From the UHGV virus genome UHGV-0314755: a stretch of DNA of 10,374 nucleotides; one strand, written 5' to 3'. Positions 7,259 to 10,374 of the stretch are shown here, piece by piece; position 1 is the stretch's first letter, and every line of letters starts with the position of its first letter. The notes below the pieces were generated by a model, which searched no databases, was not told the origin of the DNA, and worked only from the letters and a program-made list of their open reading frames with translations. The stretch comes from a virus. The translations under genes were made by a program, and so were the position numbers.

Positions 7259-7273
7259 TTACCCGTAAGGTAA
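7259..7273. promoter_or_regulatory. Operator copy 1: palindrome TTACC-cgtaa-GGTAA upstream of the 210-aa gene
   Basis: Exact TTACC(N5)GGTAA. It overlaps a candidate minus-strand -10 (TAATAT, 7278-7273), with a weak -35-like TTGGCG 18 bp further upstream (7302-7297). It is one of three copies in the window, all in non-coding regions upstream of or between minus-strand genes. Confidence 0.5.
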
Positions 7274-7338: not shown

Positions 7339-8049
7339 TCAGAAGAACCCTGCCTTGTCGTTGATGTACTCCGCGTGCGTCTGGATATCACGCAGGCATT
7401 TGCTCACACCGACGATGTAGCAGAACATGGTGGTCAGCTCCGCCGCCGCGCCCGATACGTCGTGCCCGTCTTCCTGTAACTGGTTCAGCAGATTCATCAG
7501 CAGTGAGTTTTCCGTCAGGCCGAGAACACCAGACGGAGAATGAATCAGGCTGCGGTAGCCGGGCTTCAGTGGGGCGCTGTAGGTTTTGTTCTCTATCTTC
7601 ATTGCCTGCATCACTGCTGATGCTGTGGCGTTGGCTACCTGGTCGGCAACCATCTTTATGCGTTCTTCCTGCGGGAGCGAGTTTTTAATGTAACTTCCTG
7701 TGCGGCGGATCTGAGGAAGAACCTCACCTGTAACCCATTTACGAAAGCGGTAGGGGATAGTGCCTGGTGTTACTGCATCGCGGCAGCGGAGGATCAGTGT
7801 GTAGAGGCCTGACTCGGAGATGATGTTGATCTCTTTTACTCGGCTGTCAAAAATTGCACGATGTTCATGCCCTATGTTGAACATAGACCTTTCATCATCA
7901 TCCAGTTTTTCAAGTGATTGGGTGACGTTTTGGATACGCAGCGCACTACAAACGTCTTGGGCTACAAACCATGGTTGGCCATCGATAATGATGGAACGGA
8001 TAGGGTTAACAGATTCAAATTTGAAGATGGCAGTTTGAGCATTAGCCAT
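7339..8049 (-). CDS. ant: Phage antirepressor, 236 aa: Bro-N-type N-terminal domain plus Ant-type C-terminal domain
   Basis: N-terminus MANAQTAIFKFESVNPIRSIIIDGQPWFVAQDVCSALRI matches the Bro-N / P22-antirepressor N-terminal signature (F.F....IR....DG.PWFVA.DVC..L). Preferred start is ATG 8049, with SD GGAGA and an 8-nt spacer; the ORF track's extension to 8064 uses a GTG with no SD. The C-terminal ~65 aa are about 45% identical to the 85-aa protein encoded at 8365-8622. Confidence 0.85.
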   Translation of the reverse strand: MANAQTAIFKFESVNPIRSIIIDGQPWFVAQDVCSALRIQNVTQSLEKLDDDERSMFNIGHEHRAIFDSRVKEINIISESGLYTLILRCRDAVTPGTIPYRFRKWVTGEVLPQIRRTGSYIKNSLPQEERIKMVADQVANATASAVMQAMKIENKTYSAPLKPGYRSLIHSPSGVLGLTENSLLMNLLNQLQEDGHDVSGAAAELTTMFCYIVGVSKCLRDIQTHAEYINDKAGFF

Positions 8050-8060
8050 GGTGGTTATCT

Positions 8061-8145
8061 CCACTTAGTGATTTTAATCACCACCGCAACGCCAATTACT
8101 GGTGGTGAACTGGACAAGGTTGGCGTACCGGCCTAAGTGGTACCG
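8061..8145 (-). promoter_or_regulatory. Candidate promoter/operator region of the antirepressor gene
   Basis: Minus-strand -10-like TAAAAT (8076-8071), about 20 nt upstream of the ant start region. An 8-bp inverted repeat, TCACCACC (8078-8085) / GGTGGTGA (8101-8108), sits over the -35 region. The 8-mer CCACTTAG occurs at 8061-8068 and 8234-8241, and inverted (CTAAGTGG) at 8133-8140. GTACCGGC is directly repeated at 8125-8132 and 8140-8147. Promoter assignment is tentative. Confidence 0.35.
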
Positions 8146-8205
8146 GCGTCCTTTCGGACCCCTGCCCAGCCCACCATAATTCGGATATAGCTGTGCTTAA
8201 CGCAT

Positions 8206-8228
8206 AAAAAAACCACGTCTGGCGTGGT
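8206..8228 (-). terminator. Rho-independent terminator on the minus strand, between the small Ant-like gene and the antirepressor gene
   Basis: Minus strand reads ACCACG-CCAGA-CGTGGT followed by TTTTTTT (plus-strand A7 at 8206-8212). It lies downstream of two further hairpins (8247-8262 and 8262-8283). Confidence 0.55.
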
Positions 8229-8302
8229 ATGCGCCACTTAGTAACTCGGGACGCCAATCCCGGCACTGGATTTTGCCAGTGCCCGATTACTATGGCACAA
8301 GA

Positions 8303-8346
8303 GGAGTGCAATGTAAATTTACCGCAAAGGTAAATATAAGCACTCC
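8303..8346. promoter_or_regulatory. Operator copy 2: TTACC-gcaaa-GGTAA (8319-8333) embedded in a longer imperfect palindrome
   Basis: Exact TTACC(N5)GGTAA core, flanked by the inverted 7-mers GGAGTGC (8303-8309) and GCACTCC (8340-8346). It lies 19 bp downstream of the small Ant-like gene's stop and about 270 bp upstream of the ant start. Confidence 0.5.
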
Positions 8347-8364
8347 ATTTGGTAATTGCAAACC

Positions 8365-8622
8365 TTATCTGGTTTGTTTTCGTAATTGTTCGGCACAATA
8401 GTCGAGATGTGTTTGCAGATCCTGCATAGACATCTGTGAGCTGGTGACGTAGTTAATCAGTGCAGTCAGTTCGGCAAGTGGGCCATCGACATTAAATCCA
8501 TCCTTATCGAGATCCCGGAGTAATTTCATCAAGTGCGATCCCTCCACCAGTGACCTGACGCCTCCCGGCGTGTGAATCCTTTCGGTAAATCCGTCTTCCA
8601 GTGGATAGTGATACTGCTGCAT
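8365..8622 (-). CDS. Small antirepressor-like protein, 85 aa: free-standing homolog of the Ant C-terminal domain, probably SOS-controlled
   Basis: Preferred start ATG 8622 (SD GGAG, 8-nt spacer); the ORF track's start at 8637 has no SD and would leave only 7 bp between the start codon and the LexA box. The sequence TERIHTPGGVRSLVEGSHLMKLLRDLDKDGFNVDGPLAELT...DLQTHLDY aligns with the ant product's LIHSPSGVLGLTENSLLMNLLNQLQEDGHDVSGAAAELT...DIQTHAEY. A near-consensus LexA box lies immediately upstream. Confidence 0.75.
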   Translation of the reverse strand: MQQYHYPLEDGFTERIHTPGGVRSLVEGSHLMKLLRDLDKDGFNVDGPLAELTALINYVTSSQMSMQDLQTHLDYCAEQLRKQTR

Positions 8623-8642
8623 CTTAATCTTCTCCATGCAAT

Positions 8643-8662
8643 AACTGTATGTTTATACAGTA
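8643..8662. promoter_or_regulatory. LexA (SOS) box upstream of the small Ant-like gene
   Basis: AACTGTATGTTTATACAGTA matches the E. coli LexA consensus TACTGTATATATATACAGTA at 17 of 20 positions, with CTGT-N8-ACAG intact. It overlaps a TATAAA -10-like hexamer on the minus strand and is the only such box in the window. Confidence 0.8.
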
Positions 8663-8699
8663 GCAAATAATTTGTTTGCTATCCAGCACGTTTTGCAAA

Positions 8700-8714
8700 T
8701 TACCTGAAAGGTAA
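8700..8714. promoter_or_regulatory. Operator copy 3: TTACC-tgaaa-GGTAA in the divergent region between the small Ant-like gene and the tailspike gene
   Basis: Exact TTACC(N5)GGTAA, preceded by the palindrome TTTGCAAA (8692-8699). It lies about 80 bp upstream of the small gene's start and about 105 bp upstream of the tailspike ATG. Confidence 0.5.
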
Positions 8715-8818: not shown

Positions 8819-10374
8819 ATGACGGTCTCAACCAAAGTTGACCACAACGAATACACAGGTAACGGCGTTACGACATCGTTTCCGTATACTTTTCGAATTT
8901 TCAGAAAATCAGACCTGGTTGTTCAGGTGTCTGACCTGAACGGGAACGTAACAGAATTGGTTCTGGATACCGGTTATACGGTAATTGGGGTGGGAGCTTA
9001 TAGTGGTGGTACAGTGGTTCTTCCGTCGCCGCTTGCTGCTGGCTGGCGAATCACTATAGAGCGTGTGCTTGATGTGGTGCAGGAGACTGACCTTCGAAAT
9101 CAGGGGAATTTTTTTCCAGAAGTTCATGAGGATGCATTTGACTACCTGACGATGCTGATTCAGCAGTCTTTTTCTGGTCTATCTCTTGCACTCAGAAAGC
9201 CATCACGTTTATCAAATTATTATGATGCTCGTGATAACAGAATCCAAAACTTAGCAAGCCCAATTCTCCCGAACGATGGTGTAAACCGTAATTTTGTAGA
9301 AAACCTTTTTATTGATAAAAGCGCATCTGCTTCTGCATTGCGCTCTTTGCTGGAAAGCGCAGCTGGGGCTGGAATAATTGGTACATTGCAGGGATTAACC
9401 GTTCAGTCAGTTTTAGATAATGTAAAAATCCCACTGACGTCATTCGTGTTTTCTATTCCTGATGATTTTGCTAATGCAGATTCTTTAGCAGAATATCTTG
9501 AAAATAGATGCTATACCGGCACGCAAGTAATAGTACATGTCTCAGCAGGCACTCATAATTGGAATACTCTAAATAAGATTTTTGGGAAAGAGTGGGGTTT
9601 TGGCCGACTTAAATTTGTTGGTGAAGGAATGGATTTGACAATTATTCAGTTTCTTAAACAGGACGGAATTTATGCTGAAGCAGGTGAGTGTTATGGTCAT
9701 GCGCCACAGTTTCCCGTGAGTGGTGGTGATATAATACCAATATTTAGTAATTTAACTATATCAGGAATTGACAGAGATTCAGGAATTGATGATCCATATC
9801 TTGATTCAATGGGGATAAGGGCGTTTGACGGCGGTGTTGTTGTACTTGATGAAAGCGTAAGAATAACTCAGTTTTCCAGGTGTGGAGTTATGGCTGAGAG
9901 GCATGGTATAGCTTTTGTTCCTGGGGTTAAAGTCGATACTACAGGTTCTGATTGTTTCGCTGCCTCTGAAGGTGGTTATATCTATTGTCCAGACTCTACA
10001 GCAAGCAACCCGAAAGGTCATTGCTACATCGCATATTCTGGAGGGCAGCTTTATATGCCTAACTGTATTGCCCAGAATGCAGAGACACACAACTCGTCAA
10101 ATGTAGGGGGATCTGGTCTTGTGTTGACCGGAAGCAGTTACGCTTACGCTATTAATCTTCAAACTAAAAACAATGCTCAACGTGGAATTAGTGTGGCGTT
10201 AGGGTCTTTTCTACGAGCTGACGGGTTTACTGAGAGTGAAAATATTCTACCTGTGACTGTTTCGCAGGGTTCCACGTTGGTTTCTCCAAATTGCACAATA
10301 AACAAACCAGATGCTCTTGCGCTTTTAATTGAGAAAGGAGGAAAGGCATTTTTCCAGGTAGCAACAACTGATAA
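8819..10374 (+). CDS. Tailspike protein, 5'-partial view (518+ aa; runs off the window end), with an epsilon15/Det7-type conserved N-terminal particle-binding domain
   Basis: Not in the supplied ORF track because no stop falls within the window; I translated it by hand from ATG 8819 (SD GGAG 8808-8811) and found it open to the end. N-terminus MTVSTKVDHNEYTGNGVTTSFPYTFRIFRKSDLVVQV...ETDLRNQG...LTMLIQQ matches, from memory, the conserved N-terminal domain shared by tailspikes of epsilon15-like and related enterobacterial phages. The downstream part is lower in GC and not recognisable. Confidence 0.88.
   Translation, partial: MTVSTKVDHNEYTGNGVTTSFPYTFRIFRKSDLVVQVSDLNGNVTELVLDTGYTVIGVGAYSGGTVVLPSPLAAGWRITIERVLDVVQETDLRNQGNFFPEVHEDAFDYLTMLIQQSFSGLSLALRKPSRLSNYYDARDNRIQNLASPILPNDGVNRNFVENLFIDKSASASALRSLLESAAGAGIIGTLQGLTVQSVLDNVKIPLTSFVFSIPDDFANADSLAEYLENRCYTGTQVIVHVSAGTHNWNTLNKIFGKEWGFGRLKFVGEGMDLTIIQFLKQDGIYAEAGECYGHAPQFPVSGGDIIPIFSNLTISGIDRDSGIDDPYLDSMGIRAFDGGVVVLDESVRITQFSRCGVMAERHGIAFVPGVKVDTTGSDCFAASEGGYIYCPDSTASNPKGHCYIAYSGGQLYMPNCIAQNAETHNSSNVGGSGLVLTGSSYAYAINLQTKNNAQRGISVALGSFLRADGFTESENILPVTVSQGSTLVSPNCTINKPDALALLIEKGGKAFFQVATTD

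Follow-up and report, generated by a model that had tools for sequence, protein, structure and literature searches.

The window analysed here is a stretch of 10,374 nucleotides (nt) from the UHGV virus genome UHGV-0314755, and the region of interest is the 5′ leader of its antirepressor gene, ant. The short motifs that are repeated between positions 8061 and 8241, upstream of ant, very probably constitute a P1-type immI module, in which the antirepressor is controlled by RNA. As the ant gene lies on the minus strand, the repeats are read on that strand, as part of the ant 5′ leader. An initial annotation had proposed instead that the repeats are DNA operators of a protein regulator with Mnt/Arc-like logic. 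This is contradicted by the matches to Rfam RNA families, by co-variation, by a pattern of G·U pairs and by the lack of a DNA-binding protein among the neighbouring open reading frames (ORFs). The part of the proposal that holds is that ant has a dedicated second control layer, distinct from the TTACC-N5-GGTAA sites, with the repeats as its recognition elements.

The module is supported by its membership of known RNA families, a co-varying fold, two boxes with three-way complementarity, the overlap of one box with the Shine–Dalgarno (SD) sequence of ant, an intrinsic terminator and a geometry shared with P1. Systems of this kind have been known since the work on P1 and are represented in Rfam. 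The locus passes the curated thresholds and is an ordinary member of its class, not a new kind of system.

The C4-Type RNA and Its Putative Targets

The central element is a C4-type antisense RNA at 8098–8181 on the minus strand. It matches the Rfam family C4 (RF01695) over the full length of the model (8181–8098), with 66.0 bits against a gathering score of 45 (E = 2.2e-11). The RNA is closed by a 17-bp stem that resembles an acceptor stem (8176–8160 with 8119–8103) and contains hairpin 1 (8159–8148), hairpin 2 (8147–8127) and a 3′ CCA (8102–8100). Folded alone, it has a minimum free energy (MFE) of −43.6 kcal/mol (z = −5.0), and two of its segments, b′ and a′, are left unpaired. The 11-nt loop of hairpin 2 contains the b′ segment (CCACUUAG, 8133–8140), which stays unpaired in the MFE structure, while a′ (ACGCCAA, 8120–8126) is the single-stranded junction 3′ of the same hairpin.

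Each segment has a complement in the ant leader downstream of C4. The a2 box (UUGGCGU, 8089–8095) is situated 3 nt past the 3′ end of C4, at the position of the annotated a2 of P1, and is complementary to a′ over 7 bp (8126–8120 with 8095–8089). The b2 box (CUAAGUGG, 8061–8068) is complementary to b′ over 8 bp (8140–8133 with 8068–8061). It overlaps the first two bases of the ant SD sequence GGAG (8062–8059) and lies 11 nt before the AUG.

A further copy of each box is found upstream, in an IsrK-like small RNA (8206–8282, minus strand) that is equivalent to the c4-a1b1 unit and comprises two hairpins, a single-stranded linker and an intrinsic terminator. The a1 box (UUGGCGU, 8251–8257), complementary to a′, occupies the loop of IsrK hairpin 2, and the b1 box (CUAAGUGG, 8234–8241), complementary to b′, occupies the linker. 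An Rfam scan of the window matched isrK (RF01394) at model positions 1–77 of 77, with 67.2 bits against a gathering score of 50, and a permissive scan placed c4-a1b1 (RF03163, “a1, b1 targets of C4 antisense RNA”) at 8295–8243 with 44.3 bits. The terminator (8206–8228) has the stem ACCACG/CGUGGU (8228–8212) followed by a U-run to 8206; it is the terminator hairpin of the isrK model and was also found independently. No promoter-like site was found on the minus strand between this terminator and C4, or in 8205–8050. It therefore appears that C4 is made by read-through, in agreement with its counterpart STnc1160 in Gifsy-1.

The Repeated Motifs

The positions that the initial annotation gave for the repeats were confirmed. 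CCACTTAG occurs at 8061–8068 and 8234–8241 on the plus strand, with its reverse complement at 8133–8140; these copies correspond to b2, b1 and b′, respectively. Three matches stand against 0.20 expected, a number reached in 0 of 200 shuffles. GTACCGGC is directly repeated at 8125–8132 and 8140–8147 with 7 nt between the copies (two copies were reached in 2/200 shuffles). Both copies belong to C4 hairpin 2 (8125–8147, minus strand), whose stem strands GCCGG and CCGGU are near-palindromic, and are made up of these strands together with neighbouring bases of the loop and of a′. Relatives keep the stem of hairpin 2, whereas their 8-nt direct repeat has degenerated.

TCACCACC (8078–8085) and GGTGGTGA (8101–8108) form an inverted repeat with a 15-nt gap. 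An additional, unrelated copy of TCACCACC lies at 9722–9729, and three copies were reached in 0/200 shuffles. On the minus strand, one arm is UCACCACC (8101–8108), which combines the 3′ end of the closing stem of C4 with the CC of CCA. The other is GGUGGUGA (8078–8085), a conserved segment complementary to the C4 3′ strand and partly to ACCACC just before the AUG. It was also correctly noted that none of these repeats resembles TTACC-N5-GGTAA.

Three features of the leader had been overlooked. A second triple has the same direct/inverted/direct layout, with ACGCCAA at 8089–8095 and 8251–8257 on the plus strand and its complement at 8120–8126. The others are the minus-strand intrinsic terminator and a TTACC-N5-GGTAA site at the promoter of the same leader.

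Co-Variation Among Relatives

The initial annotation had proposed to compare the ant upstream regions of related phages. Relatives were collected through the Ant protein (79 viral loci) and through a DNA pattern of the C4 stem (120 loci). After parsing, 127 genuine C4 records remained, with 49 distinct (b′, a′) combinations that comprise 37 b′ loops and 14 a′ cores. The parsing of the loop was anchored on the CCGG stem and replaced an MFE-based parsing that was inconsistent between sequences. The complements of the boxes are kept at fixed positions in almost all relatives despite widely differing letters: a1 at about −80, b1 at about −64, a2 at about +7 and b2 at +32 to +42. Across the 49 relatives, the direct and inverted copies change together as pairing partners.

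Pairing was counted for each helix in an alignment of 37 sequences (A1). The a1–a′ helix (7 pairs) is paired in 99.2% of cells and the a′–a2 helix (7 pairs) in 94.2%, and in both of them 6 of the 7 pairs have changed on both sides. The C4 closing stem (17 pairs) is paired in 99.7% of cells with both sides changed at 7 of 17, and hairpin 1 (5 pairs) in 97.2% with both sides changed at all five. The observed values were reached in 0/500 shuffles, and sliding the partners by 1–3 columns lowered pairing to 36–47%. Hairpin 2, counted column by column on the same alignment, is 55% paired, which is an alignment artefact, with the row of the window offset by one column from most rows; the stem is visible in the Rfam alignment and in the fold. 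In the IsrK-like RNA, hairpin 1 co-varies at 5 of its 7 pairs.

In the b set, a Watson–Crick b2 of at least 6 nt is present in 44 of the 49 relatives. An SD-like motif abuts or overlaps the 3′ end of b2 in 34 of 41, with a gap to the ATG that is mostly 8–12 nt. Between b′ and its cognate b1 there are 330 Watson–Crick pairs, 19 G·U pairs and 17 mismatches, and all mismatches are terminal or penultimate in the duplex. Internal differences between b1 and b2 are all transitions that keep a G·U pair with b′, e.g., CUACAAAGG vs. CUACAGAGG. They therefore fit RNA pairing and not one protein recognising one DNA sequence. A control with non-cognate b1 and G·U allowed is weak in that segments of 6–7 nt often pair fully by chance; for this reason the b-set argument is carried by positional constancy and by the Watson–Crick-only comparison.

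In several relatives (L038, L085, L109, L124, L170 and others) the pairing of b1 with b′ is systematically weaker than that of b2. The weaker b1 shows transitions that create G·U pairs, at 19 positions in roughly a dozen independent cases, and its end mostly comes 1 nt sooner (GGC vs. GGA). The window itself has the same 8-mer as b1 and as b2.

The a and b boxes reassort independently, with 14 types of the former and 37 of the latter seen. The contig IMGVR_UViG_2671181028_000005 holds three copies of C4 at about 9700–11,100, 656 bp apart. Each copy has its own a1/b1 and a2/b2 boxes and a start codon past b2, and each has a different a/b specificity.

Proposed Mechanism of Antirepressor Control

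The promoter of the leader, next to a TTACC-N5-GGTAA palindrome, would initiate transcription at about 8282. Many transcripts are expected to end at the terminator at 8228–8206, which would yield an RNA of the IsrK type, about 77 nt long, with a1 displayed in a hairpin loop and b1 in a linker. Transcripts that read through would contain C4 (8181–8098), whose hairpin 2 would expose b′ in its loop, with a′ exposed at the neighbouring junction. Given its tRNA-like acceptor stem and CCA, C4 is probably excised by RNase P.

The C4 RNA would then form 7 bp with a2 and 8 bp with b2, both located in the ant leader. As the SD sequence is overlapped by b2, binding of the 30S subunit would be blocked, no Ant would be made and the prophage repressor would stay active. 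Secondary Rho-dependent polarity may follow, as in P1, where Biere et al. (1992) are said to have found that c4 causes such polarity as a consequence of the translational block. The terminated a1/b1 RNA may compete for a′ and b′ and so relieve repression, in which case the balance between decoy and antisense RNA would set the threshold. The a and b sequences would act as specificity (immunity) determinants. Processing, action in trans, the translational block and the decoy function are proposed on the basis of the homologous systems P1 and Gifsy-1.

Comparison with Known Systems

The closest model is phage P1, whose annotated immI region contains, in order, the C1 operator Oc4, the promoters P51a and P51b, a1 (7 nt), b1 (8 nt), c4 (77 nt), a2, b2 and the icd ATG. 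In P1, a2 lies 4 nt past c4, b2 follows 22 nt later and the icd ATG lies 10 nt past b2. The order and spacing of the elements are shared by the window: a known or putative repressor operator with two promoters, a1 (7 nt) and b1 (8 nt), a terminator-like hairpin, an RNA of about 77–84 nt whose hairpin 2 loop holds b′ and whose junction holds a′, a2 3–4 nt past the RNA, b2 about 20 nt further on over a ribosome-binding site, a start codon after another 10–11 nt and an antirepressor downstream. An arm complementary to C4 follows a2 in both. P1 scores 68.8 bits for C4 (66 in the window) and 51 bits for c4-a1b1, with a weak isrK match of 35 bits that includes a terminator-like hairpin. The homologous P1 RNA is a processed 77-nt repressor that acts in trans, and its a2/b2 targets are annotated (annotated P1 record).

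The two systems differ in specificity, P1 having a = UUGACAG and b = GUUAGUG where the window has a = UUGGCGU and b = CUAAGUGG. The antirepressor is the Ant1/Ant2 pair in P1 and a single 236-amino acid Bro-N protein in the window. The operator is an asymmetric C1 site in the former and a TTACC-N5-GGTAA palindrome in the latter, and the P1-like plasmid prophage contrasts with a phiV10/epsilon15-like podovirus (Uetakevirus). The hallmarks of a C4 locus of the P1 type were found in the window, namely a C4 score above the gathering threshold, a co-varying closing stem with two hairpins, a′ and b′ matching a2 and b2, the a1/b1 copies and an antirepressor downstream. Those of isrK were likewise found: a score above the gathering threshold with the terminator included, and a position upstream of a C4-like RNA, to which it is complementary, and before an antirepressor.

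Gifsy-1 (isrK – orf45/STnc1160 – anrP) gives the same three Rfam matches in the same order, between antQ and anrP. Its a specificity is identical to that of the window (UUGGCGU/ACGCCAA) but its b differs, with b′ = UCGGUGAU. Both have a terminated IsrK followed by read-through into a C4-like RNA and the antirepressor. The upstream neighbour is the antiterminator gene antQ in Gifsy-1 and a small paralogue of the Ant C-terminal domain in the window, and the equivalent of orf45 has only 14 codons in the window. In the Gifsy-1 sequence (L202, 34050–34330, minus strand), anrP, with its start codon at 34076, has its own SD sequence, GGAGG. This is overlapped by a b2 box, AUCACCG, which is complementary to the loop of the C4-like RNA.

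It is known that the IsrK RNA of Gifsy-1 binds Hfq and activates translation of the antirepressor in trans (PMC4825925). Hershko-Shalev et al. reported that IsrK supplied in trans raised anrP translation 139-fold and fusion transcription 8-fold, and that the G28A and G31A variants of IsrK are inactive in trans (PMC4825925). STnc1160 arises by read-through and is a stable species in Salmonella (PMC4825925). The published mechanism combines orf45 coupling with refolding of the long mRNA by IsrK, and C4 is not invoked as a repressor; the authors liken IsrK to SeqA of P4 and STnc1160 to CI (PMC4825925). When the Gifsy-1 transcript is numbered from its first base, a1 is U26–U32 and a′ is A158–A164. 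The published compensatory pairs G28–C162 and G31–C159 are therefore a1–a′ pairs. Read through these complementarities, the published activation by IsrK could represent titration of a C4-type repressor (STnc1160), not orf45-dependent coupling alone.

The CI RNA of P4 with seqA/seqB/seqC, like the CA RNA of N15, is also a small RNA processed from an untranslated leader, with complementary target copies on both sides and a role in RNA-based immunity. Its output is the premature termination of transcription of the replication genes, whereas the block proposed for the window is at the ribosome-binding site of the antirepressor. The Rfam scans of the window gave no match to the P4 CI-type family, and the likeness is architectural only. 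The immI region of P22 resembles the module as a dedicated second immunity region that silences an antirepressor independently of the main repressor. P22 employs the ribbon-helix-helix proteins Mnt and Arc on DNA operators, together with the sar antisense RNA from the opposite strand, whereas the RNA in the window comes from the strand of its own target.

Points Against and Alternative Explanations

Several observations weigh against the P1-type reading. The icd-like ORF that separates b2 from the antirepressor in P1 is absent; ant has its own SD sequence, and its ATG lies 11 nt past b2. The icd ORF is specific to P1 and P7 and is not a trait of the Rfam family, and b2 would act directly on the ant SD sequence. 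There is likewise no coupling ORF of the orf45 type: the ORF from the AUG at 8177, in the 5′ strand of C4, has 14 codons and no SD sequence, and its UAG stop falls inside b′. The c4-a1b1 match is 2.4 bits under its gathering score of 46.7. By count alone the ACGCCAA triple is not significant, since three copies were reached in 31/200 shuffles; it is meaningful because of position and co-variation. The conserved GGUGGUGA arm has no role in the proposed mechanism and is not explained by it. Lastly, the Gifsy-1 authors account for their data by refolding of the long mRNA in cis and in trans without a trans-acting C4, and constitutive STnc1160 failed to relieve IsrK toxicity (PMC4825925).

One alternative is a cis-only switch as in the Gifsy-1 model, which is unlikely as a full account. 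Here, the long isrK–C4–ant transcript would be locked in an inactive form by a1–a′ and neighbouring pairing, and the short IsrK would refold it in trans. The C4 domain would never be a free antisense RNA, nor would a2 and b2 be its targets. Two conformers on native gels, the effects of G28A and G31A in cis and in trans and the binding of IsrK to the long RNA in vitro all speak for it (PMC4825925). That the C4 3′ strand and the GGUGGUGA arm both have alternative partners also indicates that alternative folds are under selection. Such a switch leaves unexplained the a2/b2 complementarity over 14 a′ and 37 b′ types and the position of b2 on the SD sequence. It also sits poorly with the P1 homologue, a processed trans-acting repressor with annotated targets, and with the existence of a stable STnc1160 species. 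In addition, the coupling ORF of Gifsy-1 is not conserved. A cis-acting component is possible for part of the behaviour.

Attenuation like that of P4 or N15, with C4 pairing to a1/b1 and a2/b2 on the nascent RNA and causing premature termination, is quite improbable as the primary output. The Gifsy-1 authors' own analogy with SeqA and CI points in this direction, as do the location of a1 and b1 just before an intrinsic terminator and the 8-fold rise in fusion transcription with IsrK in trans (PMC4825925). However, b2 overlaps the SD sequence in most relatives, which points to translation, and the Gifsy-1 effect was far larger on translation than on transcription (139-fold vs. 8-fold; PMC4825925). 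No terminator-like site was found past a2/b2 on the minus strand. Attenuation is compatible with C4-mediated translational control and may add to it, but is unlikely to be the main output.

The operator proposal, in which the 8-mers and inverted repeats are DNA sites of a second Mnt/Arc-like repressor at the ant promoter, retains very little probability. The repeats are indeed non-random, and P22 immI does use Mnt and Arc at ant. Co-varying repeated sites would also be expected for the operators of a diverging repressor, but such operators would show no G·U pattern of this sort and would not be found where a co-varying RNA fold has its loops. The motifs are part of the transcribed leader, 40–220 nt downstream of the predicted start and past the terminator, with no adjacent promoter-like site; they are thus not placed over the ant promoter as operators of the P22 type would be. 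The positions of the motifs match the loops and junction of Rfam structures in which compensatory changes occur, and the differences between b1 and b2 preserve G·U pairs. The layout of one inverted copy between two direct ones, with its spacing, is that of P1 a1 b1/c4/a2 b2. A Pfam and PHROG scan of the 19 neighbouring ORFs of at least 40 amino acids between 5560 and 10367 revealed no ribbon-helix-helix or other DNA-binding family, so no repressor gene of the P22 type was found beside ant.

The notion that the region encodes a protein, through a 100-amino acid ORF at 8398–8096 (minus strand) listed as an SF0880-like hypothetical protein in some genomes, can practically be dismissed: the frame is open, and a Shigella hypothetical protein is named as similar in the phiV10 record, but the ORF has a TTG start without an SD sequence, spans the promoter, the IsrK-like RNA, the intrinsic terminator and C4, matches no Pfam family and is not called by RefSeq in the one genome inspected. 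In relatives, C4 is between 76 and 84 nt long, with some lengths not divisible by 3, and substitutions track base-pairing rather than codons. The openness of the frame is a weak test, as some frame is open across the structured region in 36/49 relatives; the non-coding argument is for that reason based on the terminator, on the missing family match, on the varying length of C4 and on pairing-driven substitutions. To judge from the phiV10 record, the ORF was apparently annotated in Shigella as the hypothetical protein SF0880; a spurious gene call copied from database to database is the probable explanation.

A Conserved Arm Downstream of a2

The GGTGGTG sequence of the GGUGGUGA arm is nearly invariant in the alignment, though the search pattern did not impose it. 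A second C4 lineage has the 3′ strand GUCCGCCAC, with GUGGCGGAC at the position of the arm. This lineage was recovered by a different pattern. A scan of viral contigs with ATGGCGG-N50-80-CCGCCACC passed only chance matches in GC-rich contigs through its filter, among the matches listed, and the addition of an internal GCCGG anchor brought out the lineage. The counterpart of the strand and arm in P1 is CCUGCCACC/GGUAGCAGG.

The 3′ strands and arms of the two lineages were then swapped. With G·U allowed the swap was non-discriminating, since GGUGGUG also pairs with CCGCCAC via G·U, and it was repeated with Watson–Crick pairs only. Runs of at least 7 pairs were found in 94% of cognate combinations in lineage 1 and 50% in lineage 2, against 3% for lineage 1 strands on lineage 2 downstream sequences and 0% for the reverse. 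Because the arm co-varies with the C4 3′ strand between the two lineages, TCACCACC/GGTGGTGA is, on this comparison, a selected helix in which the 3′ strand pairs with the arm and encloses a2, in competition with the much longer closing stem of C4. A counter-example is the relative L405, in which the arm is retained although its C4 3′ strand has changed. The alternative pairing of the arm with ACCACC before the AUG is found in the MFE structure of the whole leader and is 92.3% paired in relatives, with one-sided changes only.

In members of the second, ATGGCGG-type lineage (L216, L343, L347 and similar), the segment 15–45 nt past C4 was seen by eye to contain the arm with GGACUCC immediately after it. 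This motif resembles b′ and can pair with the SD-containing b2 (e.g., CUAGGAGU) of the same leader. It is possibly a built-in anti-SD sequence.

A broader and more tentative proposal, which in its entirety is more doubtful than probable, joins four ideas. The a1/b1 RNA may serve specifically as a terminated anti-antisense sponge whose pairing with C4 is tuned to be weaker than that of the ant mRNA. This idea arises because b1 differs from b2 almost only by transitions that create G·U pairs and is usually 1 nt shorter. The reassorting a and b boxes may form a two-key immunity code across enterobacterial prophages. The IsrK phenotype of Gifsy-1 may reflect titration of C4 (STnc1160) rather than direct activation of the mRNA. 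Finally, the arm past a2 may be a third, undescribed element that couples the folding or processing of C4 to exposure of the ant start.

Promoters and the TTACC-N5-GGTAA Palindrome

Two promoter-like sites precede the leader on the minus strand. The downstream site (8289–8317) has TTTACA (8317–8312), a 17-nt spacer with TG and CATAGT (8294–8289), and would place the start site at about 8282, where position 1 of the isrK model would correspond to +1. The upstream site (8333–8361) has TTGCAA (8361–8356), 17 nt and TATATT (8338–8333), with 9 of 12 consensus matches. Between the two lies a TTACC-N5-GGTAA palindrome (8319–8333), a putative protein operator whose position is analogous to that of Oc4/Op51 in P1. 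Its first base is overlapped by the −10 hexamer of the upstream site.

The palindrome occurs three times in the window (7259–7273, 8319–8333 and 8700–8714), a number reached in 0/200 shuffles, and every copy has a leftward gene or leader downstream of it. The first T of each copy is also the last base of a −10-like hexamer (TAATAT, TATATT and TAGATA). Relatives preserve the half-sites but differ in the 5-nt spacer. From their sequence and placement, the three copies look like scattered operators of one phage regulator. The copy at 8319–8333 abuts the −35 hexamer of the leader promoter, which goes against the suggestion of the initial annotation that ant is exempt from the regulator marking the other promoters. 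By analogy with Oc4, it is probably a first, protein-based layer of control that is common to the two other leftward promoters.

The Host Phage, Its Antirepressor and Neighbouring Genes

The window derives from a phiV10/epsilon15-like temperate podovirus of the genus Uetakevirus, with 98.5% identity to Escherichia phage HEMP4 over 7900–8700. The ant gene (7339–8049, minus strand, ATG at 8049) encodes a Bro-N antirepressor of 236 amino acids (Pfam Bro-N, 3.4e-19; phrog_130 anti-repressor Ant, 5.7e-56). In the related Uetakevirus vB_EcoP_ZX5, overexpression of the Bro-N antirepressor ORF4 drives the phage towards the lytic cycle (PMC9782041). RNA goes unmentioned in that study, and lysogeny control in phiV10/epsilon15-like prophages has so far been described only via repressor and antirepressor proteins (PMC9782041). 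No description of RNA control of ant in these phages was found in the literature searched. The GenBank record of phiV10 annotates only a terminator and an ‘SF0880-like’ misc_feature in the leader and leaves the RNAs unannotated. In the one RefSeq record inspected, NZ_CP025328.1 (L323, 2511–2825), a 315-bp gap without annotated RNA separates the BRO-N gene from the next coding sequence. Close matches to 8040–8340 are present in 440 of 5,426 complete E. coli genomes (~8%) and are mostly chromosomal; that of E. coli ExPEC XM shows 99.7% identity over this interval.

A plausible operator reading is corrected to an RNA mechanism that is directly testable. Knowledge of the a and b boxes allows prediction of prophages that are homo-immune at the RNA layer, the design of decoy or antisense RNAs to induce such prophages or lock them and a re-reading of the IsrK work on Gifsy-1 in the terms of P1. 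The systematically weaker b1, the reassortment of the boxes and the co-varying arm past a2 may be of further interest.

Upstream of the leader lies a small gene at 8365–8637 (minus strand), which is listed as encoding 90 amino acids. A product of 85 amino acids is more likely, with the ATG at 8622 and an SD sequence at 8634–8631; this length is that of the RefSeq coding sequence. The product shows 42% identity to residues 151–228 of Ant and belongs to phrog_450; by sequence, it is a paralogue that amounts to the Ant C-terminal domain on its own. The region upstream of the gene holds a TTACC-N5-GGTAA site (8700–8714) and the only CTGT-N8-ACAG (LexA-box-like) site of the window (TACTGTATAAACATACAGTT, 8645–8660, minus strand), although 21 of 200 shuffles gave at least one such site. 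By analogy with Tum of phage 186 or the Gifsy antirepressors, the gene might encode an SOS-inducible small antirepressor.

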